DNA of 64,000 bases from an uncultured Gaiellales bacterium (lineage in GTDB: Bacteria > Actinomycetota > Thermoleophilia > RBG-16-64-13): the NCBI GenBank assembly GCA_964399135.1, contig CAYNPL010000007.1, positions 26,014-90,013 on the forward strand. Direction: 5' to 3'. Positions 2,172 to 17,651 of the stretch are shown piece after piece. The translations under genes were made by a program, and so were the position numbers. Numbering within the stretch: position 1 is the stretch's first letter; each line of letters starts with the position of its first letter. Below the pieces are notes generated by a model. That model saw only the letters and a list, made by a program, of their open reading frames with translations. It searched no databases and had not been told where the DNA came from.

Positions 2172-2174
2172 TCG

Positions 2175-2879
2175 ATGCTCGAGGTCAAAGACATCCACAC
2201 CTGGTATGGAGACAGCTACATCCTGCAAGGGGTGTCTCTGGAGGTCAAGGACGGCACGGTCGTCGCCCTTCTCGGTCGCAACGGCATGGGAAAGACCACG
2301 ACCATCCGCTCCATCATGGGGTTGGCTCCTCCTCGCAGAGGGAGCATCGTATTCAACGGGCAGGAACTGGTCGGTCTCCCCTCCTTCAAGATCGCCCGTC
2401 TGGGGATAGGGCTGGTCCCGCAGGGCAGGCTCATCTTCTCTTCGCTGTCGGTCCTCGAGAATCTCAAGATGGCCGCGCGCACCAGCGGCAAGAAGGACCC
2501 CTGGACTCTGGACAAGGTCTTCGCCATCTTCCCCAAGCTCGCCGAGCGGCGCAAGAACAAGGGGAACCTCTTGAGCGGCGGCGAGCAACAGATGCTCACC
2601 ATCGGGCGGGCGCTCATGACCAATCCGGATCTGTTGCTCTTCGACGAGCCTTCCGAAGGGCTGGCCCCGGTGGTGGTGGACGAAGTGTTTCGCATCATCG
2701 GTGAGCTCAAGGCGGCCGGCGAGTCCATCCTTTTGGTCGAGCAGGACTTCGGCATGGCCATGAGTGTGGCCGACTACGCGTACATTATGAGCAGAGGCAC
2801 CATCGTGTACGAGTCGACTCCGGACAAGCTCATCGACAACGAGACCGTGAAGGCAACCTATCTGGGCGTGGGAGAGTGA
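2175..2879 (+). CDS. livF: ABC transporter ATP-binding protein, LivF-like
   Basis: Walker A GRNGMGKTT, signature LSGGEQQML, Walker B LLLFDEPSEGLAP. LivF-type C-terminus. Confidence 0.85.
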   Translation: MLEVKDIHTWYGDSYILQGVSLEVKDGTVVALLGRNGMGKTTTIRSIMGLAPPRRGSIVFNGQELVGLPSFKIARLGIGLVPQGRLIFSSLSVLENLKMAARTSGKKDPWTLDKVFAIFPKLAERRKNKGNLLSGGEQQMLTIGRALMTNPDLLLFDEPSEGLAPVVVDEVFRIIGELKAAGESILLVEQDFGMAMSVADYAYIMSRGTIVYESTPDKLIDNETVKATYLGVGE

Positions 2880-2960
2880 GGACCAGGGAATAAGAAGGGA
2901 CAAGAGGCAGATATACTCGCCGTGTGAGCAACGGAAGTCTCGATTCGAAGGGGGGAAGGA

Positions 2961-4196
2961 ATGGACAGAAGACTCTTGACAGTAGTAGTGGTACTGATGC
3001 TGGGCGTGGCCTTGGTGGTGGCAGCCTGCGGCGAAGCCGAGGAGACCACGACCACAACTGCGGCATCCACAAGCAGCACCGTCGCCGGAGAGCCCATCAA
3101 GATCGGTTATGACGAAGGGTTCACCGGCTTCATGGCTTACGACTGCCAGCTGGCCGACCAGGGGATCAAGACGGCACTGGCGATGCTGGACAACCAGTGG
3201 GAAGGCCGTCCGCTCCAGTACTTCGCCGAAGACAACGGCTCCGACCCGGTCGTCGCCGTGGACAAGGCCCGCAAGCTGGTGGAGAGCGATAAGATCGACG
3301 TCATGATCGGCCCCATCTTCTCGCCTTCGGCGAAGGCAGTGGCCGACTACCTGGCCAAGTCCTCGGGCATACCCGAGATCTCCATTGTGGGGCAGCCCAC
3401 CGAGAACCTCGAGACCGCCAACGGGCTGGCCTTCATCCACACGGGGTTCTTCGACTCCCACGGCTACTACTTCGGCAAGTACCTGGCGGAGAAGGGCTAC
3501 AAGACCGCCAACGTCATCAACTATGACGACACGCCCGCCTATGCCCTGACCGCGGGCTTCAAGAAGGCCTTCGTCGAGGAAGGCGGCGGCCAGGTCCTCA
3601 GCGAGAACTACGTGCCCCTGGATACGGTCGACTTCAGCTCCTATCTGAGCGCCATGGAGCCGGCCGACGTCACGGTGAACTGGATCTTCGGCAACGGCGC
3701 CGTGCCCTTTGTCAAGCAGTTCCACGATTATGGGCTGCAGGGAGCGGTCGCCGTCCCCATGTCCAACAACTTCAGTGACGCGCAGCTGGCTGAGCTCGGT
3801 GACATCGCGCTGGGCATGATCGCCTGCGACTACTACGCCTGGACGATCGACAACCCGCTCAACGCCGAGTTCATCGCCGCCTACGAGAAGCTGTTCAACG
3901 GGGAGAAGCCCACCCCGCAGGCCTACGGCTCCTGGCAGGGCGTGATGATGTATCTGGAGGCCCTCAAGGCCACCGGCGGGGACACCGATCCCAAGAAGGT
4001 CATTCCGGCCATGGCCAACCTGACCATGGACTCGCCCGCGGGCAAGTTCACCATTGTGCCCTTCCAGAGCGCCTACATCGCCAAGCGCGACTTCTTCATC
4101 CTCGAGGTGCAGAAGGTGGACGAGGTCCTCACGTGGGTGCCGGTGAAGACCTACGATCAGGTGCTGCTGGGCGATCTCGCCTCGGTAGGGCAGTAG
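2961..4196 (+). CDS. Periplasmic-binding-protein type I substrate-binding lipoprotein of the HAAT ABC transporter (LivK-like). True ligand unknown, could be an amino acid or an aromatic acid
   Basis: Signal peptide plus lipobox LVVAAC, Thr/Ser-rich linker, then a LivK-like domain (IKIGYDEGFTG...). Last gene of the transporter cluster. Confidence 0.8.
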   Translation: MDRRLLTVVVVLMLGVALVVAACGEAEETTTTTAASTSSTVAGEPIKIGYDEGFTGFMAYDCQLADQGIKTALAMLDNQWEGRPLQYFAEDNGSDPVVAVDKARKLVESDKIDVMIGPIFSPSAKAVADYLAKSSGIPEISIVGQPTENLETANGLAFIHTGFFDSHGYYFGKYLAEKGYKTANVINYDDTPAYALTAGFKKAFVEEGGGQVLSENYVPLDTVDFSSYLSAMEPADVTVNWIFGNGAVPFVKQFHDYGLQGAVAVPMSNNFSDAQLAELGDIALGMIACDYYAWTIDNPLNAEFIAAYEKLFNGEKPTPQAYGSWQGVMMYLEALKATGGDTDPKKVIPAMANLTMDSPAGKFTIVPFQSAYIAKRDFFILEVQKVDEVLTWVPVKTYDQVLLGDLASVGQ

Positions 4197-4297: not shown

Positions 4298-5116
4298 CTA
4301 CTTGGCCAGCGCTATGTCACCCAGGTTGACGTCCTTCTCGGTGGAGATGGCGTCGATGGTCTTGGCGGCGAAACCCGGGGCGGCGATGGTCAGCGAGTAG
4401 GTGGCCCCGTCGGCCAGGCCGCGGAACCAGAAGTCCCCGAAGCCGTCGGTGGTCACCGTGTAGGTGGCCCCGTCCGCTCCTTTGAGGGTGCAGGTGGCTC
4501 CCTCAATGATCTCCTTCTCCACCGGGTCGTACACCGTGCCAGCGATGAACTTCTTGGGGATGTTCAGGTAGTAGACGCGCGGTTTGGCGCCCAGCTCGGG
4601 CCTCATGACCTCAGCCCTGGCGATCTCGGCCGCGAAGTCGGCTTCTTCGCCGAACTTGATGGCCTCGGTGGGGCAGGCGTCGGCGCAGCGGGGCACCGTC
4701 CACTCGCCGCCGTCCAGCAGGTGCGCGCAACCGGTGCACTTCTGGGCTAGGTTGAGATCGTCATTGAAGTAGATGGCTTTGTACGGGCAGGCGTCGACGC
4801 AGTTCCTACAGCCGGTGCACTTGTCGGTGTCGATGATCACCAGGCCGTCATCCCGCTTGTAAATGGCGCCTTCCACCGGGCAGGCCGGCAGACAGGGCGG
4901 CTCATCGCAGTGGTAGCAGGGATTGGCGATGTAGTGCATCTCCACCTTGGGTACGGTGCCGCGGATGTACTCGTCCACCCTCATCCAGAACTGGCCGGTG
5001 TCGGGCTGAGGCTTGGCGATGGGCGACCAGTCGTTCCCCACATGCTCGTCTTTGCAGACGAACTGGCAGGCATAGCAGCCCACGCACAGATCGACATCTA
5101 TCACGAAGACCTTCAT
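4298..5116 (-). CDS. Fe-S (beta) subunit of an AthL/BthL-like molybdoenzyme, copy 1. Several Cys-cluster ferredoxin N-domain plus a C-terminal transthyretin/carboxypeptidase-regulatory-like beta-sandwich
   Basis: Multiple Cys clusters (CVGCYACQFVC, CYHCDEPPCLPACP, CTGCRNCVDACP, CTGCAHLL...CADACP). The domain layout resembles the small subunit BthL of Pelobacter pyrogallol hydroxytransferase. Sits 8 bp downstream of the alpha gene on the same strand. Confidence 0.8.
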   Translation of the reverse strand: MKVFVIDVDLCVGCYACQFVCKDEHVGNDWSPIAKPQPDTGQFWMRVDEYIRGTVPKVEMHYIANPCYHCDEPPCLPACPVEGAIYKRDDGLVIIDTDKCTGCRNCVDACPYKAIYFNDDLNLAQKCTGCAHLLDGGEWTVPRCADACPTEAIKFGEEADFAAEIARAEVMRPELGAKPRVYYLNIPKKFIAGTVYDPVEKEIIEGATCTLKGADGATYTVTTDGFGDFWFRGLADGATYSLTIAAPGFAAKTIDAISTEKDVNLGDIALAK

Positions 5117-5123
5117 CTATGCC

Positions 5124-7811
5124 TTACCTTTCCTCGATCCAGGCGTCGAATCGCAACCCGGCTCCTGGGTCGTATTGCCGGGCGAAGGCTTCGGGGTAGT
5201 CCCTACGCCACGTCTCCCACTCCTCGTTCTTGACCCGCTGCACGTCGACCAGGTAGCCGCTGGTGGCCTGCCCGCAGCAGTTCTTGGAGGTCAACCCGTT
5301 GGGGGCGATGGTGTTGATGGCGCCGCCGCGGTCGACCTTCCCCGGGACCAGGGGGTCATGCCGCGCGCCGTGGTCCACGTATACCACGCCCGGTCTGATC
5401 CGCTCCCATACCCGGGCGCCCACCAGCACGATGCCGCGCTCGTTGAAGACCTTGACGATGTCGCCGTCTTTGATGTCGCGGGCGGCCGCGTCGACGGGGT
5501 TGATCCAGATGGGCTCGTAGCGGTAGCCGTCGAAGCCCAGCACCTTGCCGGTGGGAGTCTCCCGGGCCCAGCTGATGTCGTCACCCTGGGCGTGGGTACG
5601 CCAGCGCGGGTGGTTGGACATGAGCAGGAGGGGGAACATGGCGGCGCGCTCGCTGGACAACGCTTCGTCGTGGGTCTCGCCCTTCTCGATCCACTTGGGG
5701 AAGGGCGGGCGCTCGTTGTCGCAGGGGAAGTGCTGATGCAGCCGCTCGGAGTAGAACTCCAGCAGGCCGCTGGGGGTCTTCAGTGGGTTGTTCTTGGGGT
5801 CCTCGTAGAAGAGGCGGAAGCCGGGCGGGTCCTGCTCCCAGTCCGGGGCGGTCTTGTAGACGTAGGTCTTCTTCTCGTAGAAATCCTCCCAGGTGGTGAG
5901 CTTGTCCATCTTCATGGCGTCGAACACGATCTTCTGCAGGTCCCTCGTGCCCAGGCCGCCGGTGAACTCCTCGCCGTAGCCGAGCTTCTCGGCGATGGCG
6001 GCTACGATCTCATAGTCGCTCTTCGACTCGCCGATAGGCTTGACCGACTGTTCCTGGATGGACACGCTGGCGAAGTGCGGGCCCTGCCGCACCGTGGTGA
6101 CGATATCCTCCACCTCGAGGGTGGTGTTGGCCGGTAGGACGATGTCGGCGTAGAGGCACTCGTTCTCCATCCAAGGATGCTGGGCGACGATGCACTCGAT
6201 GCTGGGGTCCTTGAAGGCCTCGATGGTCCAGTTGCCGTGGTTCCAACAGGTGATCCGGCAGGGGGTGTCGGTCCAGATCATGTGGATGGGTACGCCGCCC
6301 TCTTCTTTGGCGATCGGGTAGGTGTAGCGGTCGAATTGCTCCTCGGTCTGGCACTCCTGGCCGCCGCTGCCGTGGAAGACCAACGGGGGCTTGAGGATGG
6401 CGTCCTGGATGAGGGTCTTGGGGATGAGCTGCGGACCCCAGGCGTGCACCGTGGTCCAGCAGGGTTTGGTGAGCCGCTCGGGCAGCTCGGGGTTGAAGAA
6501 GCGGACGCTGCCCAGCCCTTCCGCCCGGGGCATGCCGAAGTAGGTCATCTGGCACTGATGCACGCCGGGACCGCCCAGGCCCTGCATGCCCAGCATGACG
6601 CACTCGAGCCGGCCCGGCTCATGGGAGTACGGACCGCGGAAGGCGGAGCCGCCGAAATAGTGGATGATGGAAGTGGTGTTCTTGGCGAACTGCCGGGCGA
6701 GGGCCTTGATGGTCCACTCGGGCACGCCGCACTTCTTGGACGCCCATTCCGGGGTCTTGGGGATGCCTTCCTCGTCTTCCCCCAGGACGTAGGAGGCCAC
6801 CTTGTCCATGCCCACGGCGTGGGTGGCGACGTACTCCTTGTCCCAGGTGTCTTCCTTGAGCCACACGTAGATGATGGCCAACTGAAGGGCGGCGTCGGTG
6901 TTCGGCAGCACTGGGATCCATTTGTCGGCGTGCACCGCGGCCGCGTAGTTGAGGTCGGGACAGATGTACACCTGTTTGATGCCGGCCCGGGTCCAGAACT
7001 GGGAGATGCGGCTGGCGTACTGGCCGGTGAAACCCCAGGGCGTGGTCTCCTCGTCGCAGCCCCACTTGAGCACCATGTCGCAGTGCTCGGAGATGTCCTT
7101 GATGAGGTTGGCGGCCGGCGACATCATGCCCTGGAACCCCTGACCCCAGACATGCTTGGCTCCCCAGTACCAGCCTTCCCAGCTGTCAGGGTTGCGGACC
7201 TGCTGGGTGAAGCCGCCCATCATGTCGAGGAGGCGGGCCTGGTGGCCGTGGGGGGTGTGGATGGTCTTGTTCTCGCCGTGGCCGTCACCCTGGGCTAGGA
7301 TGGCGAGCGGCCCGTACTCTTTGTGGACACGCCGGATCTCGGAGGCGACGAGGTCGATGGCCTCGTCCCAGGAGATGCGCACGAACTTGCTCTTGCCGCG
7401 ATTCTGGGTGTTACGCCCGCCCGGGCCCACCGAGCCGGGGGCCCCGGTGGGGTCCCAGTCCACCCGTTTGAGGGGGAACTTGATGCGGTTGGGGGAGAAC
7501 GTCCGCTTCTTATAGGCCAGCGAGAACGGCGCGGGGAGGGCCTTGCGCAGTGGCATCAAGGTCTCGCCGTTACGCTCTATCTTCCACGGGCGCAGCGATT
7601 CGAAGTCGTACTTCCAGTCGTACTTGAACGGCCTGATCCTGATGGCCTTGCCGTCTTTGACGTCGACGAAGCATTCGCCTCCTCCCCCGAGGAGTCCGCC
7701 CATCGCCAGGTTCTTGATGGTCGTCTTGTCGATGCTTACGTCGACTTTCTTGCGTTCCTCTTCCGCCATCTCAATCGTCGTCCTTTCGTCTTCCGATGCC
7801 CGGTCGGTCAA
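5124..7811 (-). CDS. Molybdopterin (bis-MGD) oxidoreductase catalytic alpha subunit, pyrogallol-phloroglucinol transhydroxylase-like, divergent copy 1
   Basis: 895-aa ORF sharing conserved blocks with copies 2 and 3 (VDVKDGK.IRIRP, NPDSWEGW.WG, GCDEETTPWG, PEWA...CGVP) and with my recollection of P. acidigallici AthL. No N-terminal Cys cluster and no twin-arginine (Tat) signal peptide. The ORF opens with TTG at 7811 and no RBS. An in-frame ATG at 7769 (MAEEERKK...) with AAGGA upstream is the more likely start. Confidence 0.8.
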   Translation of the reverse strand: MTDRASEDERTTIEMAEEERKKVDVSIDKTTIKNLAMGGLLGGGGECFVDVKDGKAIRIRPFKYDWKYDFESLRPWKIERNGETLMPLRKALPAPFSLAYKKRTFSPNRIKFPLKRVDWDPTGAPGSVGPGGRNTQNRGKSKFVRISWDEAIDLVASEIRRVHKEYGPLAILAQGDGHGENKTIHTPHGHQARLLDMMGGFTQQVRNPDSWEGWYWGAKHVWGQGFQGMMSPAANLIKDISEHCDMVLKWGCDEETTPWGFTGQYASRISQFWTRAGIKQVYICPDLNYAAAVHADKWIPVLPNTDAALQLAIIYVWLKEDTWDKEYVATHAVGMDKVASYVLGEDEEGIPKTPEWASKKCGVPEWTIKALARQFAKNTTSIIHYFGGSAFRGPYSHEPGRLECVMLGMQGLGGPGVHQCQMTYFGMPRAEGLGSVRFFNPELPERLTKPCWTTVHAWGPQLIPKTLIQDAILKPPLVFHGSGGQECQTEEQFDRYTYPIAKEEGGVPIHMIWTDTPCRITCWNHGNWTIEAFKDPSIECIVAQHPWMENECLYADIVLPANTTLEVEDIVTTVRQGPHFASVSIQEQSVKPIGESKSDYEIVAAIAEKLGYGEEFTGGLGTRDLQKIVFDAMKMDKLTTWEDFYEKKTYVYKTAPDWEQDPPGFRLFYEDPKNNPLKTPSGLLEFYSERLHQHFPCDNERPPFPKWIEKGETHDEALSSERAAMFPLLLMSNHPRWRTHAQGDDISWARETPTGKVLGFDGYRYEPIWINPVDAAARDIKDGDIVKVFNERGIVLVGARVWERIRPGVVYVDHGARHDPLVPGKVDRGGAINTIAPNGLTSKNCCGQATSGYLVDVQRVKNEEWETWRRDYPEAFARQYDPGAGLRFDAWIEER

Positions 7812-7863: not shown

Positions 7864-8706
7864 TTACTGAGATGCCTGCCTTCCGTTTTGGGCGGTCGTG
7901 GCCGCCCGCTGGGAGGTCGTGCCCGGCCATCCCAGGTACGCCGAGAAGGAGGCCGCGGCCTTCTTCACCGCCTCTGTGCATAGGTCCCGTTCCTCCGGAC
8001 CGAACCGGCCGGTCGGCACCACCACCGATATGGAGGCGACCACCGTTCCCGCCTGGTCGCGCACAGGCGCACCCACCGCGCAGGTGCCCAGATACATGCC
8101 CTCCAGGTCGAAGGCCACGTCGTTGCGCGTCACTTCCTCCAGTTCGGCGGCGAGGGCGGCGCGGTCGGTCACCGTATAAGGAGTGCGGGGAGAAAGCGCC
8201 TGATCGAGTATCGCCTCCCGCTCCTCCGGTGGTTTGTAAGCCGTAAATAGCTTGCCGTGGACCGAGGCCAGGTCGCCCAGGATGCGCCCGGGGGCGGTCT
8301 TGCGTTTGAATGGGCGGGTGGTGTTGATGATGTCCACGCATACGGGGTACCCGTCGATCTCGACCGCCAAGGTCACCGATTCCCCCGTTTCCTTGGTGAG
8401 GGCCTCCAGGAAGGGCCGGGCCGCCTCCACCAGGTCCGATTGGTCTTGGGAGACGTAGGTGAGGGCGATGGTGGCCGGGCCCAACCGGTAGCGGTTGGTG
8501 GCGGGGTCCCGGACGAGATAGGCCATCGACTCCAGGGTCCGCACCATGCGGTAGACCGTCATGCGGAGAAGCCCGGTCTGCTCCGCCATCTCGTCGATGG
8601 TCCACTCTCGGTGGTCCACATCGAAGAGGCTGAGGATGGACAGCCCGCGGGTGAGGGCCCGCACGGAGAACGGGTCGGTCTCCCGAGATTCCTTGGTCGC
8701 CGCCAT
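7864..8706 (-). CDS. IclR-family transcriptional regulator
   Basis: N-terminal winged HTH (LTRGLSILSLF...EWTIDEMAEQTGLLRMTVYRMVRTLE) plus a C-terminal IclR effector domain. Lies upstream of and co-directional with operon 1, and divergent from operon 2. Confidence 0.85.
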   Translation of the reverse strand: MAATKESRETDPFSVRALTRGLSILSLFDVDHREWTIDEMAEQTGLLRMTVYRMVRTLESMAYLVRDPATNRYRLGPATIALTYVSQDQSDLVEAARPFLEALTKETGESVTLAVEIDGYPVCVDIINTTRPFKRKTAPGRILGDLASVHGKLFTAYKPPEEREAILDQALSPRTPYTVTDRAALAAELEEVTRNDVAFDLEGMYLGTCAVGAPVRDQAGTVVASISVVVPTGRFGPEERDLCTEAVKKAAASFSAYLGWPGTTSQRAATTAQNGRQASQ

Positions 8707-8747
8707 GCCCCCCCTTCCGCGGGGACCTGCCCTCAGGGCCCCGCGCC

Positions 8748-8776
8748 TTGCAAATCGACTCCGGCTACCCTACGAT
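8748..8776 (+). promoter_or_regulatory. Candidate sigma-70-type promoter of alpha2 operon (TTGCAA-17-TACGAT) at the edge of an AT-rich island
   Basis: Hexamers with 17-nt spacer read directly in the 153-bp divergent intergenic region. Followed by AT-rich 8771-8815 containing direct repeats (CAATAT x2, ATATCG x2). Confidence 0.3.
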
Positions 8777-8859
8777 ACTACCAATATTATTCGTCAATAT
8801 CGAGATATCGCATTGTGTTCCGCCCGGCAAGCTCATCCGATCCGATTGGGGGCTGATGT

Positions 8860-11388
8860 TTGATGTCTGAGAAGGTCTATACGAACCTCACCAACAGCGG
8901 CCCGGTGACCGTTTACGTCAAGGACGGCAAGATAGTCAGGGTCCGTCCTCTGGTGGTCGCCGACGGCGACATGAGGCCCTGGACGATCGAGGCCGGGGGC
9001 AAGGAGTACTCGCCCTGGAAGAAGTGCACTCTCTCGCCCTATATCCATGCCGAGCGCCGCCGCATCCACTCCGACGAGCGCATCCGTTATCCCATGAAGC
9101 GGGTGGATTTCGACCCCGACGGCGAGCGCAATCCTCAGAACAGGGGTAAGTCGCGCTACGAGCGCATCTCTTGGGAAGAGGCCTCCACTCTGGTGGCCAA
9201 GGAACTCATGCGGGTCAAGCAGACCTACGGCGGCTCGGCCATCAGCGGCATCACCTCCTCCCACCACAACTGGGGCATAGTGGGCTACAAGATGGGCCCC
9301 TTCGCCCGCTTCATGAACATGATGGAGTTCACTCCGGTGCTGGACAACCCCGACAGCTGGGAGGGGTGGCACTGGGGCGCGAGTCACACCTACGGTTTCT
9401 TCTGGCGCCTGGGGATGCCGGAGCCCTACGACATGTTGGGCGACGCCTTGCAGAATGCTGAGATGATCGTCTACTGGTCCAACGACCCCGACAGCACCCG
9501 GGGCACCTACTCCGGCCAGGATTCGGCCTTGTGGCGGCAGTGGCTCAAGGAGAAGGGCGTCAAGATGGTGTTCATCGACCCCTTCTACAACTACACCAAC
9601 GCCGTCATGGGGGGCAAGTGGATCGCCCCGCGCATGGGGACCGACACCGCCGTCGCCATGGCCATCGCCTTCGTGTGGATCACCGAGGACACGTACAACA
9701 AGGAGTACGTGGCCGACCGGACCATCGGCTTCGAGAAGTTCAAGCCCTATGTGTTGGGTGAGACCGACGGGATGCCCAAGACCCCGGAATGGGCGGAAGC
9801 CGAATCGGGTGTGGACGCCCGGGTCATCCGGACCCTGGCCCGGGAGTGGGCGGCCAAGCGGACCATCCTGTCCGGAGGCTCCCGCGGCGGCGAGGGCGGC
9901 GCCTGCCGGACGGCCTACGGTACCGAGTGGGCCCGCATGATGGTGCTGCTACAGGCCATGCAGGGCCTGGGCGCTCCCGGGCGCAGCATCTGGGGCACGA
10001 CGATGGGGGCCCCCATGTACACCGACCCCTGGTTCCCCAGTTACGGCGAACCCGAGGGCCGGATGTCCAGCGCGACCCGGGTGGCCAAGTATATCCCCCA
10101 GAACCCCACTAAGCAGCGCCTGTGGCGCCTGACGGTGCCGGAGGCCATCCTCAACGGCCATGATGAGTGGTACGGCGAAGGCTTCTGCGGCAGGAGCCTG
10201 GAGCAGCAGTTCACGCACTTCACCTATCCCATGGAGGGCCACTCCGAGATCAAACTCTGGTACCGGTACGGAGGCTCGTTCATCGGCACCATGAGCGAGA
10301 CCAACAACTGGGTGCGCATGTATCAGAGCCCCAAGCTGGAGTTCGTGGTCAACCAGGACATCTGGTGGCAGAGCGAGACCCGCATGGCTGATGTCATCCT
10401 GCCCGCCTGCACCAACTTCGAGCGGGACGACGTGGGCGAGTGGGCGGCCATCAACGGCTACACCGTGCACGCCAGCTCGGGCTGCAACTACCGGGTGGTG
10501 GTGCGCGAGCAGAAGTGCATCGAGCCCCTGTGGGAATCCAAGTCGGACTACCAGATCTTCTCCCTCATAGCCGAAAAGATGGGCCTGCGGGACGAATACA
10601 CCGACGGCGGCAAGACCGAGGTCGACTGGGTCAAAGGTTTCTTCGACATCTCCGACCTGCCCAAGGAGATCAGCTGGGAGGAGTTCAACACCAAGGGCTA
10701 CCACATCATCAACGTGCCCGATGACTACAAGCCTACCCCGGGCCTGCGTTGGTTCTACGAGGGGCGCCCCTGCGACACGCCCGACCTGGGCAACCCCAAA
10801 CGCCTCACCGCGCAGCGGGCTGAACTGGGCACCTTCAGCGGCAAGATCGAGTTCGAGTCGGTCAGCCTCAAGCAGTACTTCCCCGATGACGAGGAACGGC
10901 CGGTGGTCCCCCGCTACATCCCGAGCTGGGAGGGGCACCACACCACCGAGTTGTTCGCCAAGTACCCCCTCGCTCTGGTGTCGCCGCACCCGCGGATGTC
11001 CTTCCACTGCCACTACGACAAGCACACGGACTGGCTGAACGACATCCCCGCCCACCGGATCAAGAAAGACGGCTACGCCTGGTGGCCGGCCCGCATCAAC
11101 CCTGAGGACGCGGCCCCGCGGGGCATCAACAACAACGACATCGTGCGGCTCTACAACGACAGAGGCTCGGTGCTCTGCATCGCCGTGGTCACCGGGCGGG
11201 TCAGACCCGGTGTCATCCACAGCTACGCTTCGTCCGCTCTGTACGATCCGCTGACTCCGGGTGACCCCAACGCCATCGACAAGGGCGGGTGCGTGAGCAT
11301 CCTCACCCCGGCGCGGATTATGTCCAAGAACGTCCCCGGCATGACGCCCAACTCGTGCCTCATCGAGATCGAGAAATGGGAGGGCTGA
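8860..11388 (+). CDS. Molybdopterin (bis-MGD) oxidoreductase catalytic alpha subunit, pyrogallol-phloroglucinol transhydroxylase (AthL)-like, copy 2
   Basis: N-terminus MMSEKVYTNLTNSGPVTVYVKDGKIVRVRPL and the blocks RYERISWEEA, SSHHNWG (the Ser-containing motif at the Mo-ligand position), NPDSWEGWHWG, TPEWAE...GV all match AthL as I recall it. No Fe-S Cys motif, no Tat signal. Probable true start is ATG at 8863. Confidence 0.85.
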   Translation: MMSEKVYTNLTNSGPVTVYVKDGKIVRVRPLVVADGDMRPWTIEAGGKEYSPWKKCTLSPYIHAERRRIHSDERIRYPMKRVDFDPDGERNPQNRGKSRYERISWEEASTLVAKELMRVKQTYGGSAISGITSSHHNWGIVGYKMGPFARFMNMMEFTPVLDNPDSWEGWHWGASHTYGFFWRLGMPEPYDMLGDALQNAEMIVYWSNDPDSTRGTYSGQDSALWRQWLKEKGVKMVFIDPFYNYTNAVMGGKWIAPRMGTDTAVAMAIAFVWITEDTYNKEYVADRTIGFEKFKPYVLGETDGMPKTPEWAEAESGVDARVIRTLAREWAAKRTILSGGSRGGEGGACRTAYGTEWARMMVLLQAMQGLGAPGRSIWGTTMGAPMYTDPWFPSYGEPEGRMSSATRVAKYIPQNPTKQRLWRLTVPEAILNGHDEWYGEGFCGRSLEQQFTHFTYPMEGHSEIKLWYRYGGSFIGTMSETNNWVRMYQSPKLEFVVNQDIWWQSETRMADVILPACTNFERDDVGEWAAINGYTVHASSGCNYRVVVREQKCIEPLWESKSDYQIFSLIAEKMGLRDEYTDGGKTEVDWVKGFFDISDLPKEISWEEFNTKGYHIINVPDDYKPTPGLRWFYEGRPCDTPDLGNPKRLTAQRAELGTFSGKIEFESVSLKQYFPDDEERPVVPRYIPSWEGHHTTELFAKYPLALVSPHPRMSFHCHYDKHTDWLNDIPAHRIKKDGYAWWPARINPEDAAPRGINNNDIVRLYNDRGSVLCIAVVTGRVRPGVIHSYASSALYDPLTPGDPNAIDKGGCVSILTPARIMSKNVPGMTPNSCLIEIEKWEG

Positions 11389-11392
11389 GAGC

Positions 11393-12229
11393 ATGGCACG
11401 CTTGAGCCTGCTGATCGACGTCACCAAGTGCAGCGGCTGCCACAACTGCTTCTTGGCCTGCCGCGACGAGTACTACGACAACGACTATTCCCCCTACTCG
11501 GCGCCCCAGCCGCTGGAAGGGCAGCACTGGATGCAGATCAAGGAGGTCGAGCGGGGGGGCTATCCCAAGCCCAAGCTCGACTACATCCCCCTGCCCTGTC
11601 TGCACTGCGAAGACGCTCCCTGCATCACGGCGGCCGCTGACGAGGCGGTCTACCGGCGTGGGGACGGCATCGTCCTCATCGACCCGGTGAAGGCCAAGGG
11701 CCAGAGGGACATCGTCCGGGCCTGTCCCTACCGGGTGATCTTCTGGAACGCGGAGCTGGACATCCCGCAGAAGTGCACCCTGTGCGCGCACCGTCTGGAT
11801 GAAGGGGAGAAGGAGCCCCGCTGCGTGGAGGCCTGCCCCACCGGCGCCCTGGCCTTCGGCGACATAGACGATCCGAACAGCGATATCTCCAAGCTGATGG
11901 CGGAGAAGAACATCGAGGTCTACCATCCCGAGTTCGGGACGTCGCCGCTGGTGAAGTACGTGGGGATCCCCAAGCGGTTCATCGCCGGAGAGGTGGTCCG
12001 GGACGACCTGCGCGGCGAGTGCGCCCAGGGGGTGAAGGTCACGCTGCAGGGGGCCGGCGGCACCTGGGAGACGACGACCGACAGCTACGGCGACTTCGAG
12101 TTCGAGGGCCTGGAGAAGAACGCGGCCTACACCGTGCGGGTGGAGCTGGCCGGTTACGCGCCGCGGACTTTCGACGTGGTGACCAGCAAGGACGTCGTCC
12201 TGGGTGAGATCGTCCTGACCCGCACGTGA
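11393..12229 (+). CDS. Fe-S (beta) subunit of AthL/BthL-like molybdoenzyme, copy 2
   Basis: CSGCHNCFLACRDE, PCLHCEDAPC, ACPYRVIFW and CTLCAHRL...CVEACPTGA ferredoxin motifs plus a C-terminal beta-sandwich domain. Lies 4 bp after alpha2 and is paralogous to beta1. Confidence 0.85.
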   Translation: MARLSLLIDVTKCSGCHNCFLACRDEYYDNDYSPYSAPQPLEGQHWMQIKEVERGGYPKPKLDYIPLPCLHCEDAPCITAAADEAVYRRGDGIVLIDPVKAKGQRDIVRACPYRVIFWNAELDIPQKCTLCAHRLDEGEKEPRCVEACPTGALAFGDIDDPNSDISKLMAEKNIEVYHPEFGTSPLVKYVGIPKRFIAGEVVRDDLRGECAQGVKVTLQGAGGTWETTTDSYGDFEFEGLEKNAAYTVRVELAGYAPRTFDVVTSKDVVLGEIVLTRT

Positions 12230-13419
12230 GAGACGTCGTCATAGTCAGCGCGGTCCGTACGGCAGGAGGCCGCATCGGGGGCTGCTTCAAGGACGTGCAG
12301 CCGGACGATCTGGCCAAGGTCGTCATCTCCGCCGCGGTCCAACGAGCCGGGGTGGACCCCGGCGACGTCGACGAGGTCATCATGGGGCAGGCCAAGCAGA
12401 GCGCCGACGCGGCCAATCTGGCCCGCGTCGCCGCTCTCAAAGCCGGTCTGCCCATCGAGGTGCCGGCCTACACGGTGATGCGCCAGTGCGGTTCGGGCCT
12501 GCAGGCCGTCAACAGCGCCGCCCAGGCCGTCATGTGCAGTCTGGCCGACATCGTGGTGGCCGGCGGTGTGGAGAGCATGAGCAACGCCCCCTACTACCTA
12601 CGGGGTGCCCGCTTCGGCTACGGGTCGGGCAACGCCGTCCTGGTCGACTCCAACACCGAGAGCCAGCCTCGTTCGCAACCGGTGGAGGTGTACGGCAACC
12701 TGACCATGGGGATGACGGCGGAGAACCTGGCCGTCAAGTACGGCATCAGCCGGGAGGAGCAGGACGCCTTCGCCCTGGCCAGCCAGGAGAAGGCGCTGGC
12801 CGCCGTCGCCGAGGGCCGGTTCTTGGAGGAGATCGTGCCGGTGGAAGTACCTCAGAGGAAGGGTCCGCCGCTGTCGGTGGTCACCGACGAGCATCCCCGC
12901 GCCACCAGCATGGAGGCGCTCGCTCAGCTGAAGCCGGTGTTCAAGACGGGTGGAACGGTCACCGCCGGCAACTCCTCGGGGCGTAACGACGGGGCTGCCT
13001 GCTTGGTGGTCATGGCGGCGGAGGAAGCCCAGCGCCGGGGCCTCGAGCCGATGGCCTTCATCCGCAGCCAGGCGGTCTCGGCGGTGTCGCCCGAGATCAT
13101 GGGCATCGGGCCGGCGCCGGCCACGCGCAGGGCGCTGGCCGCGGCCGGCCTCGACCTCGCCGACATCGGCCTCATCGAGCTCAACGAGGCCTTCGCCGCT
13201 CAGAGTCTGGCCGTGATCAAAGAGCTGGGCCTCGACCAGACCATCGTCAACGTCAACGGCGGCGCCATCGCGCTCGGACATCCGTTGGGCTGTTCGGGCG
13301 CGCGTATCCTCACCACCCTGCTCTTCGAGATGAAGCGGCGGGGCACCCGCTACGGGCTTGCTACCATCTGCATAGCCGGTGGGCAGGGCATCGCCACCAT
13401 CGTGGAGGCAGCCGCCTAG
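12226..13419 (+). CDS. Acetyl-CoA C-acetyltransferase (thiolase II family)
   Basis: N-terminal [15 protein letters not shown], active-site Cys in [10 protein letters not shown], and C-terminal [18 protein letters not shown]...CIAGGQG thiolase signatures. GTG start overlaps the beta2 stop (GTGA). Confidence 0.85.
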
Positions 13420-13455
13420 CTCCGCCGGCCCGCGGGCCGCCGGGAGAGAGACCGC

Positions 13456-14637
13456 ATGAACACACATGAATACCAGGCGCGCGAGGTCCTGGCCGGTTAC
13501 GGCGTGCCCTTCCCACCGGCCAAACTGGCCTTCACCGCCGCCGAGGTGGAACGGGTCGCCCGCGACCTGGGCGGCGCGGTGGTGGTCAAGGCTCAGATCC
13601 ACGCCGGGGGGCGGGGCAAGGCCGGCGGGGTCAAGCGGGCCGCCTCGGCGGAAGAGGCGCGGGAGTGCGCCCTGGCCCTGCTGGGCAAGTGCATCATGGG
13701 CCGGCCGGTGCGCAAGGTCTTGGTGGTCCAGGCCGTTGCTCTCGCTCGGGAGATCTACCTGGGGGCGGTCATCGACCGCGCGGCCCAGACCGTCACCCTG
13801 ATGGCCAGCGCCACCGGCGGGGTCGATATCGAAGAGGTGGCGCGGACCGCACCCGGGGCGATCGTCAAGGTGGCGGCCGACCCGCTGCTGGGGCTGGCCG
13901 ACTACCAGGCCCGCGACCTGGCCCGGGCGGTCGGGCTGGCCGGGGAGCAGGTGCGGGTGTTCCAGAGGGTGGCCCGGGGCCTGTACCAAGCCTTCATCGA
14001 GTGTGACTGCTCTCTGCTGGAGGTGAATCCGCTGGGGGTGACGACAGGGGGGGAGATAATCGCCCTCGATTCCAAGATGGTCATCGACGACAACGCCCTC
14101 TTCCGCCGGCCGGCGCTCGCCGCTCTCCGCGATGTGGACGAGGAAGACCCTGCCGAGGTGGAGGCCCAACGGGTGGGGGTGCAGTACGTCAAGTTGGGCG
14201 GCCAGGTGGGCTGCATGGTCAACGGGGCCGGCCTGGCCATGGCCACCATGGACGCCATCAAACTCTTCGGGGGGGAGCCGGCCAACTTCCTTGACATCGG
14301 CGGGGGAGCCCGTCCCGATCAGATCGACGCCGCCCTCCGCATCATCCTGCTTGACCCCCACGTGCGGGCGGTCCTCGTCAACATCTTCGGGGGCATCATC
14401 CGCTGCGACGTGGTGGCCCAAGCCATAGCCGGCCACATCGCGGGCGGAGGGGTGCGCGTCCCGGTGGTCGCCCGCCTGGTGGGTACCAACGCGGCTGAGG
14501 GCCGGGAGATCCTGTCCGGAACCCAAGTGCACCTGGCCGACACCATGGTGGAGGCGGCCGAGAAGGCGGTGGCTCTGGCCGGGATTGTTCTGGCGCCGAG
14601 CCGGTCGGGGGCGGCCGGAGGGACGGAGGGGCCGTGA
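13456..14637 (+). CDS. sucC: Succinyl-CoA synthetase-type ADP-forming acyl-CoA ligase, beta (ATP-grasp) subunit
   Basis: [18 protein letters not shown]...[18 protein letters not shown] and [15 protein letters not shown]...[14 protein letters not shown] are collinear with E. coli and M. tuberculosis SucC. Confidence 0.85.
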
Positions 14638-15527
14638 GCATTCTGGTCGACGCCGCCAGCCGCGTCCTGGTACAGAACATCACCGGCCGGGAGGGGAGCC
14701 ACCAGACCCGGCAGATGCTGGCCTACGGAACCAACATCGTTGCGGGCACGGCGCCGGGCAAGGGCGGTCGGGAGGTGGAAGGCGTCCCTGTCTTCGAATC
14801 GGTGCGGGAGGCGGTGGATGCCACCGGGGCGACCGATTCCATCATCTTCGTCCCCGCCGCGTTCGCGCCCGACGCCATCATCGAGGCCGCCGACAACGGC
14901 CTGCGCCTGATCGTCTGCATCACCGAAGGGATACCCGTGCTCGACATGGTCAAAGTGTGCGCCCATGTCCGGACCAAAGGCTCCCGCCTACTGGGACCCA
15001 ACTGCCCGGGTGCCATCAGCCCCGGCTTGTGCAAGCTGGGCATCATGCCGGCGGAGGTGTTCACCCCGGGGCCGGTGGGGCTGGTGTCCCGCAGCGGCAC
15101 CCTCACCTATGAGGTGGCCCAGCAGCTCACCTCCCTGGGAGTGGGGCAGTCCACGTGCGTGGGCATCGGCGGAGACCCGGTGGTAGGCACCTCTTTCACC
15201 GACATCTTGGCCCTCTTTGAGGAAGACCCGGCCACCAAGGTCATCGCCATGATCGGCGAGATCGGGGGCGCGGCCGAAGAGGCGGCGGCCGCCTTCATCG
15301 CCGAACGGGTGACCAAGCCGGTGGTGGCCTTCGTGGCCGGCAAAACGGCCCCACCCGGCAGGCGCATGGGTCACGCCGGAGCCATCGTCTCGGCCGGACA
15401 GGGCACGGCGGCCGGGAAGATCGCCGCGCTGGAGGCGGCGGGGGTGACCGTCGGCGGGACCATGGAGAAGACCACCGAGGCGGTGGCCGCCATAGCCGCC
15501 GGCCTGGGCCTGCGGGGCGGCGCCTGA
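14634..15527 (+). CDS. sucD: Succinyl-CoA synthetase-type ligase, alpha (CoA-binding) subunit
   Basis: Rossmann CoA-binding N-terminus and phospho-His motif [14 protein letters not shown] overlap with sucC. Confidence 0.85.
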
Positions 15528-15555: not shown

Positions 15556-16272
15556 CTACGGGGCCAGGGAGATACGGGGCGTCTCGGCCGTGAGGTAGTC
15601 TATCCGGATACGGCCGCCGCAGAACCGCGCGATCAACTCCGCCACCTCGGCGCAGGCCTCTTCGATCTCCGCCCTGGTGACGGGAGGCAATCCGTCGACG
15701 TTGAACTCGATGGCCGTGGTGTCGGGGAGGGTCAGGGTGTGGTTGCCCTGGCGCCAGGTCCAGCGGCGGGTGAGGACGGTGTCGCCTTCGGCGAAGATGA
15801 CCTCCCCGGGAAGAGGGTGCTCCGTCTGGTCGGAACCGAGGGGGACGAACTCCTCGGTGCCGGTGGCGAACCGTAGCTCGATATCCCCGTTCAACAGGTC
15901 GATGGCGTGACCGCCGGCCGGGATGAGGTGGCGCAGCGACATGACGTTGCCGATGTCGACCAGGGCGTTGATGGCGGGGAGCTCGTCGCCCCGCAGGGCC
16001 CGTCTGGCCATGGCCTCCACCGACGAGCGGAACTCGGCGGGCTTGGCCCCGAAAGCGCGGTAGGCGTCACGCCAGGCCTTGATGCGGGGCTCCTCGGCGA
16101 TCTTCTCGAGGTCGACCCGGGCCCGCACCGACGCCTCCGCCTCGCGGAGCATGGCCACCAGCTCTTCCGGAGAGGGGCCGTTCTTGACGTCATGGGCTAT
16201 GACCACGCCTCGGACGTAGCCGGGGAACCGCTCGAAGATCTCGGGGGCGATGCTGTATTCGAAGTACGGCAT
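15556..16272 (-). CDS. Stand-alone B3/4 tRNA-binding-like domain protein (PheT B3/4 family)
   Basis: 238 aa. Motifs KAWRDAYRAFGAKP and NALVDIGNVMSLRHLIPAGGHAIDL resemble the B3/4 domain of Phe-tRNA synthetase beta subunit. No synthetase core. Confidence 0.5.
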   Translation of the reverse strand: MPYFEYSIAPEIFERFPGYVRGVVIAHDVKNGPSPEELVAMLREAEASVRARVDLEKIAEEPRIKAWRDAYRAFGAKPAEFRSSVEAMARRALRGDELPAINALVDIGNVMSLRHLIPAGGHAIDLLNGDIELRFATGTEEFVPLGSDQTEHPLPGEVIFAEGDTVLTRRWTWRQGNHTLTLPDTTAIEFNVDGLPPVTRAEIEEACAEVAELIARFCGGRIRIDYLTAETPRISLAP

Positions 16273-16373
16273 GGTTACATCCCTGTCGCTAGGATTGACC
16301 GGGTGGCGTCGTTGTCTGACTCGATTCTACAGGCTATGCTCCCCTTCGGCAGGTGGAAGGGAGGAGGCATACG

Positions 16374-17651
16374 ATGCGCATCGAGCTCCCGTGGGGACCG
16401 GGACCGGCGACGGTCGAGATCGACGATCGCCGGGTGGCCGGCGTGCTGGGGGCGAACGTAGAGCGGGCGGCCGACCCCGCGGGTGTCCTGCGGGCGGCGC
16501 TGACGGCACCCGACTCGGAGTTCGCGTCTTTCTTGGCCGGAGCGCAGTCGCCCTTGCTGGTGGTGGTCAACGACGGCACCCGGCCCACCCCCTCGGCGGA
16601 GGTGCTGGGGGTGCTCCGCCCGGGATTGGAGGCGTGGGCGGAGCGACCCGGCCACGAGGTCGGCTTCGCGGTAGCCACCGGCACCCACCGGGCCGCCCTT
16701 CCTTTGGAGCTGGAGCGCATCTTCGGGGCCGACTTCTTGGCCGCTCACGGCGCGCGCGTCTTCTCCCACGATGCCAAGGACGAGGCCGGCTTGGTGGAGC
16801 TGGGCCGGAGCAGCCGGGGTACTCCCCTCTGGGTCAACAGACGGCTGGCCGAGGCCCGCAGCGTCCTGCTCATCAACTCGGTGGAGCCGCATTACTTCGC
16901 CGGCTACACCGGGGGGCGCAAGTCGCTCTTTCCCGGGCTGGCCGGATACCGGACGGTCTGGGCCAACCACAAGTTGTCGATGCAGCCGGGCTCGGAATCC
17001 CTGGTCCTCGCCGGGAATCCGGTCCACGAGGACCTGGAGGAAGCGCTCGCCCTGGGCATCGCCGGCAAACAGGTGTACTCAATCCAGTTGGTTCTCGACA
17101 AGGATCACCGCATCGGCTTCGCCGCAGCCGGGGATCTGGACCGGACCTTCCGCCGGGCGGTCGCCGTGGCCGACCGGCAGTTCGTCCTCGACATCGAGAG
17201 GCCCTACGAGGTGGTGGTCGCCGTCGCGCCGCCCCCCATGGACTGCAACTTCTACCAGACGAACAAGGCCATCCAGGGCGGCGTCCCGGCCGTGAAGGAC
17301 GGGGGCATCCTGATCGTCCTATCGGAGTGCCCTTTCGGGCTGGGCGAGAACCAGACACTCTATGACATGCTGGCCGCGGCCGGCTCGCCTGCCGAGGCTC
17401 TCGAGCGGGCCGACCAGGAGGAGTACCGGCTGGGAGTGCAGCAGGCCACCCGCATCGCCGCCGTGCTGCAAAGGGCTCAGATATGGGCGGTCACGTCGCT
17501 GGATGAAGCTCAGGTGCGGGCCATGTTCATGACCCCCTACCGCGATGTCCAGACGGCTGTCGACGCCGCTCTGGAGCAGCAAGGTCCCGCCGCCCAAGTC
17601 CTTTTCCTGAAGGAGGCCAGCATCACGGTGCCCCGGGTCCGGATTTCTTGA
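16374..17651 (+). CDS. LarA-family (nickel-pincer nucleotide-dependent lactate racemase-like) 2-hydroxyacid racemase/epimerase homolog
   Basis: Conserved LarA block EPHYFAGYTGGRKSLFPG (cofactor-binding Lys) and overall 425-aa length. The ORF opens at 16353, but ATG 16374 has RBS GGAAGGGAGGAGG. No larBCE genes in the window. Confidence 0.75.
   Translation: MRIELPWGPGPATVEIDDRRVAGVLGANVERAADPAGVLRAALTAPDSEFASFLAGAQSPLLVVVNDGTRPTPSAEVLGVLRPGLEAWAERPGHEVGFAVATGTHRAALPLELERIFGADFLAAHGARVFSHDAKDEAGLVELGRSSRGTPLWVNRRLAEARSVLLINSVEPHYFAGYTGGRKSLFPGLAGYRTVWANHKLSMQPGSESLVLAGNPVHEDLEEALALGIAGKQVYSIQLVLDKDHRIGFAAAGDLDRTFRRAVAVADRQFVLDIERPYEVVVAVAPPPMDCNFYQTNKAIQGGVPAVKDGGILIVLSECPFGLGENQTLYDMLAAAGSPAEALERADQEEYRLGVQQATRIAAVLQRAQIWAVTSLDEAQVRAMFMTPYRDVQTAVDAALEQQGPAAQVLFLKEASITVPRVRIS

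Follow-up and report, generated by a model that had tools for sequence, protein, structure and literature searches.

Gene organization of the locus

The window analyzed here is a stretch of 64,000 nucleotides of contig CAYNPL010000007.1 (positions 26,014 to 90,013, forward strand) from an uncultured Gaiellales bacterium, and represents a fragment of a bacterial chromosome with 65% GC and a very high third-position GC (GC3) in its real genes. The subject of this report is a string of five genes on its forward strand: alpha2 (8863..11388), which codes for the large subunit of an AthL-like transhydroxylase/hydroxylase; beta2 (11393..12229), coding for the BthL-like small subunit; a thiolase II gene of the predicted acetoacetyl-CoA thiolase type (12226..13419); and sucC (13456..14637) and sucD (14634..15527), coding respectively for the β and α subunits of an ADP-forming succinate-CoA ligase. 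A first-pass annotation, made from the sequence alone, had named the products as AthL-like alpha and beta subunits, a thiolase and a SucCD-type ligase, and these identities are confirmed by Pfam and NCBIfam models and by matches to AthL and BthL; a GC3 of 0.89-0.92 and full-length domain matches in each of the five establish that all are real genes.

Divergent from this string, on the reverse strand, are an IclR-family regulator (7864..8706; Pfam HTH_IclR and IclR_C) and a second pair of molybdoenzyme genes: alpha1 (5124..7811; Pfam AhtL-like_1st, Molybdopterin and Molydop_binding), which codes for a divergent AthL-like molybdopterin subunit, and beta1 (4298..5116; Pfam Fer4_11 and CarboxypepD_reg), which codes for a BthL-like iron-sulfur subunit with a C-terminal barrel. 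The divergent intergenic region between the IclR gene and alpha2 (8707..8862) is locally AT-rich ('ctacgatactaccaatattattcgtcaatatcgagatatcgcattg') within the otherwise GC-rich genome and contains a GC-rich inverted repeat at 8718-8745; it is presumably the operator/promoter region of the cluster.

The genes of the string are closely packed. The stop codon of alpha2 (TGA, 11386-11388) is followed after a 4-nt gap ('agca') by the ATG of beta2 at 11393; beta2 and the thiolase gene have a GTGA in common at 12226-12229, as do sucC and sucD at 14634-14637, where the GTG start of sucD overlaps the stop of sucC; and sucD ends with a stop codon at 15525-15527. The tight packing claimed in the first-pass annotation is borne out at these three junctions, but it did not list the fourth: the stop codon of the thiolase gene (TAG, 13417-13419) is separated from the ATG of sucC at 13456 by a 36-nt spacer (13420..13455), which combines a small GC-rich hairpin with a purine-rich stretch suited to ribosome binding. 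The start of alpha2, previously placed at the TTG at 8860, is more likely the ATG at 8863, which was also the choice of the gene caller. For the thiolase the gene caller chose 12295; the Pfam Thiolase_N model aligns from its position 1 to residue 4 of the longer open reading frame, and this alignment, along with the thiolase-typical N-terminus, makes the GTG at 12226 the better start.

A scan of positions 7800-16400 recovered no promoter-like site with a sigma-70 consensus, which is uninformative for high-GC Actinomycetota, and a single terminator-like site, located on the minus strand inside alpha2 (shuffled sequences average 3.2), leaving the coding strand of the five-gene string with none. 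The hairpin in the thiolase-sucC spacer lacks a T-run and its stability is ordinary relative to shuffled sequence (fold z = -0.79); being unremarkable, it was rejected as a terminator. Among relatives this spacer varies in both sequence and length, from a 4-bp overlap in locus L089 through 19 nt in L003 to approximately 160 nt, and the start of sucC is overlapped by the upstream stop codon in two loci, namely that of the thiolase gene in L089 and that of a RidA gene in L090. The string as a whole, with its single strand, minimal spacers, absence of a terminator-like site and an order kept in relatives, has the features of an operon. Hence, the operon-like arrangement proposed previously holds up, and co-transcription of the five genes is plausible from their layout.

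The AthL/BthL-like subunits

To our knowledge, the enzyme from Pelobacter is the only characterized transhydroxylase. Alpha2 matches AthL of Pelobacter acidigallici along its full length (E = 1.3e-266, 889.9 bits) and beta2 matches BthL (4v4c_B; E = 3e-63), while alpha1 is much more divergent from AthL (E = 1.6e-124). A third large subunit gene, alpha3 (51244..53826, reverse strand), is an orphan with no adjacent beta gene and is situated between truA/RidA-like genes and TetR/rplM; at 1179.5 bits it is its product, and not that of alpha2 on which the first-pass annotation had centered, that comes nearest to AthL in the window. In locus L162, a copy of alpha3 with 77% identity lies beside the cluster of that locus. 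All three alpha proteins are matched by the Pfam models PF21423, PF00384 and PF01568, and none of them by the Pfam model Molybdop_Fe4S4; both beta proteins couple a Fer4_11 ferredoxin domain to a C-terminal CarboxypepD_reg barrel.

Alpha2 retains H134, Y142, D164, S165 and Y394, which are the equivalents of AthL H144, Y152, D174, S175 and Y404. In the 2004 crystal structure, His144, Tyr152, Arg153 and Tyr404 of AthL reportedly line the substrate/co-substrate pocket. At the position of R153 alpha2 has K143, and this lysine is invariant in its 120 best homologs. The NPDSWEGW motif is kept, and D164 and S165 are likewise invariant in the 120 alpha2 homologs and occur in alpha1 and alpha3 as well. 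Alpha3 retains the full set of six AthL residues examined, R153 included. Alpha1 retains the equivalents of H144, D174 and S175 and displays a threonine, a proline and a gap at Y152, R153 and Y404, the gap being an arginine in the HMMER alignment. The loss of the equivalents of Tyr152, Arg153 and Tyr404 in alpha1 suggests that it might act on a different substrate or catalyze a hydroxylase-type reaction.

Alpha2 belongs to a large family: over 5,000 homologs were matched at E<=1e-50. Its 120 top-scoring homologs, which are 70-100% identical to it, include proteins of Desulfobacter, Desulfococcaceae, Thermodesulfobacteriota, Pseudomonadota and an Acidobacteria-labelled metagenome-assembled genome (MAG), and the alpha2 orthogroup spans Actinomycetota, Desulfobacterota and Pseudomonadota at 70-92% identity. 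The alpha1-beta1 pair accompanies alpha2-beta2 across phyla: alpha1 is 62-66% identical in the Desulfobacter-type loci described below and 70-95% identical in actinobacterial loci, and beta1, together with alpha1, is conserved at 76-90% in related loci. The AthL family has been placed among the Ser-coordinating MopB enzymes (PMC10100899), and AthL homologs in sediment Chloroflexi genomes have been noted as markers of pyrogallol use (PMC3971608).

The thiolase and the succinyl-CoA synthetase

The thiolase scores well above the cutoff of TIGR01930 (469.3 bits vs 240.55), possesses the Thiolase_N and Thiolase_C domains, and has the complete Cys-His-Cys set in the motifs RQCGSG, GHPLG and GCSG. 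Among solved structures it is nearest to acetyl-CoA acetyltransferases (400-415 bits), with a β-ketoadipyl-CoA thiolase scoring approximately 328 bits, and it falls below the cutoff of the pcaF models. By its nearest solved relatives it is thus predicted to be of the acetoacetyl-CoA type. We also considered a role as a 3-oxoadipyl-CoA thiolase supplying succinyl-CoA to SucCD, which is rated unlikely given the pcaF scores and the better scores of the acetoacetyl-CoA thiolases.

Both subunits of the ligase pass the equivalog cutoffs for succinyl-CoA synthetase (SCS): SucC scores 483.4 bits against NF001913 (cutoff 370) and SucD 423.4 bits against NF004230 (cutoff 336). The pair falls below the cutoffs for malate-CoA ligase (420.9 vs 604) and for ADP-forming acetate-CoA ligase. 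An identity as an acyl-CoA synthetase of the ADP-forming acetyl-CoA synthetase (ACD) type was tried and rejected (ACD alpha model TIGR02717, 80.5 vs 567): the superfamily is common to both, the family is different. An ACD couples an ATP-grasp_5 beta part to an alpha part of approximately 460 aa with CoA_binding_2 and Succ_CoA_lig domains, a composition that the window genes do not share. SucC (393 aa) combines ATP-grasp_2 and Ligase_CoA domains, has the NIFGGI motif and matches the β subunit of the Thermus SCS (3ufx_B) with E = 3.7e-112; SucD (297 aa) combines CoA_binding and Ligase_CoA domains and has the GHAGA phosphohistidine loop along with the motifs SRSGTLTYE and GIGGDP.

The clade of the window SucC (59 sequences, identity to the window protein of 60.5% or more) was compared with 62 other SucC sequences, comprising those of Chloroflexi and Thermoleophilia and two solved structures. 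Where 90% or more of the 62 agree, the window clade departs from them in only three columns, G22A, I190V and I251V, all of which are conservative replacements; of the 114 columns conserved at 95% or above in the other set, 92 are equally conserved in the clade and most of the remainder reach at least 90%. These comparisons concern column conservation rather than named pocket residues, and nothing in them points to a remodelled acid-binding site. The first-pass annotation had placed the ligase in a ring-cleavage module; the equivalog scores, intact motifs and the three conservative changes give no sign of specialization toward ring-cleavage products.

In the neighbor-joining tree of SucC, the Chloroflexi sequences are followed by L064, L005/L007, L006 and then the rest, a shape like that of the species tree; as judged from this tree, SucC is vertically inherited. 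Its rate sets it apart from its neighbors: SucC is 62-80% identical where alpha2 is 79-92% identical, yet it keeps almost all of the canonical conserved columns. In L006, for instance, identity to the window is 62% for SucC, 75% for the thiolase, 79% for alpha2, and 92% each for NusG and L1. Among the SucC matches, no second copy was seen on the large related contigs and no relocated copy on those of L085 (452,532 nt) or L086 (115,600 nt), which is a weak negative.

Conservation of gene order among relatives

Relatives of the locus were collected by a SucC scan of species-representative genomes followed by a tblastn panel, to which five further SucC homologs, picked only for their long contigs, were added; a metagenome scan with alpha2 contributed 80 loci and is biased toward alpha2-bearing ones. 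The trees are neighbor-joining trees of tblastn-derived sequences, the long-read contigs of L086, L089 and L171 carry frameshifts, and some loci are near-duplicates (L104/L105, L090/L107, L115/L157, L124/L161 and L118/L119). The nearest public genomes to the window are uncultured Actinomycetota MAGs, and an identical SucC occurs on two metagenome contigs of the Joint Genome Institute (samples 3300037501 and 3300043177).

The order alpha2-beta2-thiolase-sucC-sucD is found in three other MAGs, with SucC 78%, 72% and 62% identical to that of the window. Two Thermoleophilia MAGs (SucC 61-63%) have a different arrangement, in which sucCD is convergent to another AthL-like alpha/beta pair accompanied by an IclR gene and an alpha1 ortholog, with no thiolase gene. 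Among the five homologs chosen for their long contigs, L088, L089 and L171 display the direct order, L090 the same order with an insert, and L172/L173 a different context. The insert in L090 (5519-10004), also seen in L107, consists of genes for caprolactamase-like HydA and HydB and for RidA placed between the thiolase gene and sucC, with all genes tightly packed; the best NCBIfam models for HydA/HydB are CapA/CapB, with scores below cutoff. Altogether the five-gene order recurs in 12 other loci, two of which (L090 and L107) have the three inserted genes. Its presence in at least 10 other contigs indicates that the string is no assembly accident.

In L172 (7555-12033) and L173, genes for the α and β subunits of an indolepyruvate:ferredoxin oxidoreductase, both above their equivalog cutoffs, are followed after a 4-bp overlap by sucC (71% identical), sucD and a LarA gene, and no AthL-like gene was found within 10 kb upstream of sucCD in L172. 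An identification of the upstream genes as a 2-oxoglutarate:ferredoxin oxidoreductase was rejected on the NCBIfam assignment. The SucC of L172 nests inside the AthL-linked SucC clade of the tree and is, therefore, the same ortholog and not a paralog. It is unusual in itself for an aryl-pyruvate oxidoreductase to be paired with an SCS; the arrangement recalls the archaea, which pair indolepyruvate:ferredoxin oxidoreductase with an ADP-forming acyl-CoA synthetase.

On the right, the loci of this lineage have a fixed border. In the window this comprises a gene for a B3_4-domain protein (15556..16272, reverse strand; Pfam B3_4), which is convergent with sucD, and one for a homolog of the LarA-like nickel-pincer 2-hydroxyacid racemases (16353..17651, forward strand; Pfam Lar_N and LarA_C). 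Both genes border all loci of the thiolase type (type A, defined below), with or without sucCD: the B3_4 gene comes directly after sucD where sucCD is present and directly after the thiolase gene where it is not. A total of 23 type A loci have enough downstream sequence to be informative (21 from the scan, the window and L171); sucCD follows the thiolase in 13 of these, twice by way of the HydAB-RidA insert, and the remaining 10 proceed straight to B3_4. The thiolase-to-B3_4 gaps of loci without sucCD, 50-343 nt in the 10 of this kind that were measured, contain no sucCD remnants. The exception in length is L085, where approximately 6.6 kb of toxin-antitoxin and unassigned genes separate the thiolase gene from B3_4, again with no remnant of sucCD. 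On the alpha2 tree, type A loci that have sucCD are intermixed with those that lack it, which implies several gains or losses of sucCD, though such counts are rough on trees of this kind. Thus, sucCD is separable both ways: the module occurs without it in 10 loci, and it occurs without the module in L172.

Gene neighborhoods in other phyla

Context look-ups and the metagenome scan of 80 loci revealed three designs of alpha2-beta2 neighborhoods: type A: in this design, found in the actinobacterial lineage, thiolase II lies downstream of alpha2-beta2 and follows beta2 in all 32 thiolase-type loci. Type B: found on approximately 30 contigs including Desulfobacter sp. CP054837.1, these loci feature alpha2-beta2 followed by a cupin, a short-chain dehydrogenase/reductase (SDR), usually two PF04199 cyclases and a two-subunit ACD, and after it an enoyl-CoA hydratase, a DUF35 protein and an SCPx-type thiolase; a TRAP transporter is often present. 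Among its members are L083 (Desulfobacter sp. CP054837.1, 5,035,455-5,057,974), which has molybdenum-cofactor biosynthesis genes upstream, L084 and L087. Type C: four high-GC contigs have a fused ACD of 745 aa behind alpha2-beta2. The IclR gene occupies the same position in nearly all type A and type C loci.

The alpha2-beta2 orthologs of other phyla are 70-80% identical to the window pair. Of the non-thiolase-type loci, 20 extend 5 kb or more downstream, and 18 of these have an ACD; a member of the nucleoside-diphosphate (NDP)-forming ligase superfamily lies downstream of alpha2-beta2 in 31 of the 43 informative loci across the three designs. Clustering of a thiolase and an NDP-forming CoA ligase with an orthologous molybdoenzyme, as the first-pass annotation had noted for this locus, is thus also a feature of other phyla. 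The type B SDR and cyclases were considered as phloroglucinol reductase and dihydrophloroglucinol cyclohydrolase; this was not confirmed, as solved structures gave generic SDRs and one weak hydrolase match, and the assignment stays at the level of the Pfam family. The gene content of the Desulfobacter-type cluster suggests a version of the phloroglucinol route that proceeds through CoA esters and differs from the BKACE-based pathway of Clostridium; we found no description of it in the literature.

The genes expected of a phloroglucinol route are not at hand in the window. In Clostridium scatologenes the corresponding cluster codes for phloroglucinol reductase (PGR), dihydrophloroglucinol cyclohydrolase (DPGC), the 3-hydroxyacyl-CoA dehydrogenase-like TfD, a BKACE-type triacetate lyase (TAL), a thiolase, which cleaves acetoacetyl-CoA, and a CoA-transferase, which activates acetoacetate (PMC10470551). 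The first-pass annotation had proposed a search for homologs of the ring-cleavage enzymes elsewhere in the genome; neither in the 64-kb window nor in the approximately 5 kb beyond its left end was a PGR, DPGC or BKACE-family (triacetate-lyase-type) gene found, and no CoA-transferase gene was found in any locus examined. Approximately 8 kb upstream of alpha2 in the relative L086 are genes for a 3-hydroxyacyl-CoA dehydrogenase, a BKACE protein and an SDR, with homologs upstream in L107; the C. scatologenes pathway draws on these enzyme families. Any tie between the module and a phloroglucinol-type route is indirect. Aldehyde:ferredoxin oxidoreductase genes are present in L086 and L090, and L089 has pyruvate formate-lyase-like genes (17969-20550, frameshifted) between rplA and rplJ; taken with the indolepyruvate:ferredoxin oxidoreductase of L172, these point to an anaerobic, fermentative lineage.

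Other genes of the window

To the left, the cluster is flanked by a Liv-type (branched-chain) ABC transporter (54..4196, forward strand; Pfam BPD_transp_2, ABC_tran and Peripla_BP_6), with two permeases, the first of which is cut by the start of the window, two ATPases and a Peripla_BP_6 binding protein (2961-4196); it is syntenic in L003/L093, L004 and L095. Directly upstream of this transporter, just left of the window start, is a MoaF-family gene (L174 3698-4555), preceded by genes for an alanine dehydrogenase, a class III aminotransferase and a divergent TetR regulator, a trio that also occurs in L085 as fragments. To the right, the best model for the LarA-like protein is that of nickel-dependent malate racemase (NF052593; 296.8 bits, below its cutoff of 500), and no larBCE genes were seen near the LarA-like genes. 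Beyond it, beginning approximately 2 kb downstream of the string, is the block rpmG-secE-nusG-rplKAJL-rpoBC followed by ribosomal-protein operons. DUF169 (COG2043) genes occur at the right end of the window (62986-63771, reverse strand) and, in the Thermoleophilia MAG of L005 (4478-5200, reverse strand), near its sucCD/AthL-like cluster, where there is also a gene for a fumarate-reductase-like flavoprotein.

Functional interpretation

The unit conserved in this lineage consists of two AthL/BthL-type molybdoenzymes (alpha1beta1 and alpha2beta2), an IclR regulator and an acetoacetyl-CoA-type thiolase. By its sequence and tree, sucCD is the ordinary, vertically inherited succinyl-CoA synthetase of the lineage, situated between the thiolase gene and the fixed B3_4/LarA border. 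Its separability from the module, its canonical sequence and its vertical phylogeny make an ordinary synthetase parked behind a catabolic operon the best reading of its presence here. Accordingly, we consider it probable, with considerable room for doubt, that the locus is an IclR-controlled AthL/BthL and thiolase module trailed by an ordinary SCS, which in this genome is probably read through. The compact ring-cleavage-to-ATP module earlier proposed for the five genes survives in part: alpha2-beta2-thiolase is constant over 32 loci, whereas SucCD is canonical and is absent in 10 of the 23 informative loci. The alternative offered with it, a housekeeping SucCD placed here by chance, fits better as to housekeeping, but 'by chance' is too dismissive for an adjacency that survives several rearrangements.

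In such a module, the likeliest reaction of alpha2beta2 would be the transfer or addition of a hydroxyl group on a tri- or tetra-hydroxybenzene, whose ring might then be reduced and hydrolytically opened by a route of the phloroglucinol type with its genes at another place in the genome, the thiolase splitting the resulting acetoacetyl-CoA to acetyl-CoA. In this genome sucCD would probably be read through from the alpha2 promoter, and any help that it gives would come via its normal succinyl-CoA/succinate/ATP chemistry and not through a new substrate specificity: for example, succinyl-CoA might be regenerated as the CoA donor for the activation of acetoacetate, or might itself be converted with formation of ATP.

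Several points weigh against reading SucCD as a mere trailing synthetase. Its adjacency to AthL-like genes is more persistent than simple neighborhood predicts: an AthL-like alpha/beta pair lies within 5 kb in nine of the 10 loci reached through SucC, in three arrangements, and in L090 and L107 the three inserted genes have not taken sucCD out of the co-directional string. With an NDP-forming ligase in 18 of the 20 non-thiolase-type loci, CoA-ligase activity seems to be part of the pathway. Further, among relatives such as L004, L006 and L102, no gene of the cluster is as poorly conserved as sucC. As for the molybdoenzyme, the phenol substrate of alpha2beta2 is a prediction; the orthogroup has an invariant lysine at the position of AthL R153, and alpha3 is more AthL-like.

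Some of these points would be accommodated if SucCD were a working part of the pathway, namely the stand-in of this lineage for ACD, operating through the acetate:succinate CoA-transferase/succinyl-CoA synthetase (ASCT/SCS) cycle or a succinyl-CoA:acetoacetate CoA-transferase, with the transferase encoded elsewhere. We regard this as unlikely, but deserving of serious attention. A CoA ligase of the same superfamily recurs after alpha2-beta2 in other designs as well as overall (18/20 and 31/43 loci); the overlaps into sucC in L089 and L090 are of the translational-coupling type; sucCD stays in the gene string of L090/L107 across the insert and adjoins AthL-like genes in all but one of the 10 SucC-reached loci; in L172 it trails an acyl-CoA-producing enzyme; and the neighbors suggest anaerobic fermenters, in which substrate-level phosphorylation matters. 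The ASCT/SCS cycle is itself an established way to form ATP (PMC12817287). Yet a strict SCS could serve the pathway only through a CoA-transferase, no gene for which was seen in the loci, and ten related loci keep alpha2-beta2-thiolase with neither sucCD nor another nearby ligase, just as L172 keeps sucCD without the molybdoenzymes. Moreover, the conserved columns of SucC show no change hinting at a new substrate, and the ACD of the other designs most plausibly activates the ring-cleavage acid at the cost of ATP, which a strict SCS could not do. An extended version, in which a canonical SCS was recruited as the energy-coupling or CoA-recycling step of trihydroxybenzene fermentation in place of the ACD of Desulfobacterota and Pseudomonadota, and more generally as a module behind acyl-CoA-producing enzymes, we hold to be rather doubtful. 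If true, the five-gene string and a CoA-transferase encoded elsewhere would together accomplish hydroxyl shift, thiolysis and ATP formation, and the same SucCD behind other acyl-CoA-producing enzymes, such as the indolepyruvate:ferredoxin oxidoreductase of L172, would constitute a general substrate-level-phosphorylation module.

The opposite possibility is that the adjacency has no transcriptional meaning, with the molybdoenzyme/thiolase operon ending at 13419 and sucCD being a constitutive core gene pair with its own promoter in or near the 36-nt spacer. The location in a core chromosomal region, with the ribosomal-protein/rpoBC block close downstream, would suit such a gene; the spacer is variable in sequence and length (19 to ~160 nt) with its small GC-rich hairpin, and the sigma-70 scan is uninformative in this high-GC group. 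However, a spacer of 36 nt is a tight fit for a promoter, in L089 and L090 the preceding gene runs into the start of sucC, in L003 the two genes are 19 nt apart, the hairpin has no T-run and is no more stable than shuffled sequence, and nothing points to an internal promoter within the thiolase coding region; we consider this explanation improbable. Least of all do we expect SucCD to have been neofunctionalized into a direct ligase for acetoacetate, triacetate or 3-hydroxy-5-oxohexanoate, an idea to which we give very little credence. Bacterial SucCD enzymes have some promiscuity toward other dicarboxylates, and SucC is the fastest-evolving gene of the cluster; against this stand the equivalog-level scores of both subunits, the absence of any non-conservative clade-specific replacement at conserved columns and the finding of the same ortholog in unrelated gene contexts. 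The ordinary synthetase trailing a molybdoenzyme-thiolase module remains our preferred reading. A dedicated ligase would bear on ATP formation in these fermenters; the evidence favors an ordinary enzyme in an unusual position.

Wider significance

The turnover of carbon in peat, sediments and guts is controlled in part by the anaerobic degradation of trihydroxybenzenes that derive from tannin and lignin. The alpha2 orthogroup is very large, highly conserved and uncharacterized, and occurs in at least three cluster designs, all of which end in CoA-thioester chemistry; their comparison yields candidate genes for pathway variants not yet described. In agreement with the first-pass annotation, which knew of no such combination in one operon, we found no description in the literature of the orthogroup, its three cluster designs or the transhydroxylase-thiolase-SucCD string. 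What is new is the arrangement: the enzyme families are known, the attached SCS is canonical, and the mechanism is not new. The relatives with and without sucCD offer a natural experiment on the participation of succinyl-CoA synthetase, and the three alpha paralogs in one genome could match the sequential transhydroxylations that reportedly occur in Pelobacter massiliensis.

Comparison with known systems

The molybdoenzyme resembles AthL/BthL of Pelobacter in its two-subunit build, with an AthL-like N-terminal domain and bis-molybdopterin guanine dinucleotide domains in the alpha subunit and a ferredoxin domain and CarboxypepD_reg-like barrel in the beta subunit, and in the equivalents of the Mo-ligand Ser175 and of H144, Y152, D174 and Y404 kept in alpha2. 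It differs in that alpha2 belongs to a separate, very widespread orthogroup with an invariant lysine in place of R153, and in that the window has three paralogous alpha genes, of which the orphan alpha3 is nearer to AthL than is alpha2.

SucCD is like the canonical enzymes of E. coli (1jkj) and Thermus (3ufx) in domain order, length, motifs, equivalog scores and the start/stop coupling of sucC and sucD. Its locus in the window, in contrast, adjoins no tricarboxylic acid cycle genes (such as sucAB or sdh) and trails a catabolic operon, and the window copy is less conserved among close relatives than are its neighbors.

With the C. scatologenes phloroglucinol cluster the locus has the thiolase in common, and the relatives L086 and L107 additionally have the 3-hydroxyacyl-CoA dehydrogenase, BKACE and SDR genes near alpha2. 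In contrast to that cluster, the window lacks PGR, DPGC and TAL genes, has no CtfAB-type CoA-transferase, phosphotransacetylase or acetate kinase at this locus, and joins the molybdoenzyme to the thiolase operon.

A further parallel is the Desulfobacter-type cluster, which has orthologous alpha2 (~77%) and beta2 (62-67%), in many cases also alpha1-beta1 as a divergent pair together with an IclR or GntR regulator, and a thiolase and an NDP-forming CoA ligase co-directionally downstream. There, however, the ligase is of the ADP-forming acetyl-CoA-synthetase type (ATP-grasp_5 and Succ_CoA_lig) and not SucCD, the thiolase is of the DUF35-associated SCPx type and not thiolase II, and the candidates for ring reduction and ring hydrolysis (the SDR and the cyclase) are encoded in the same cluster.

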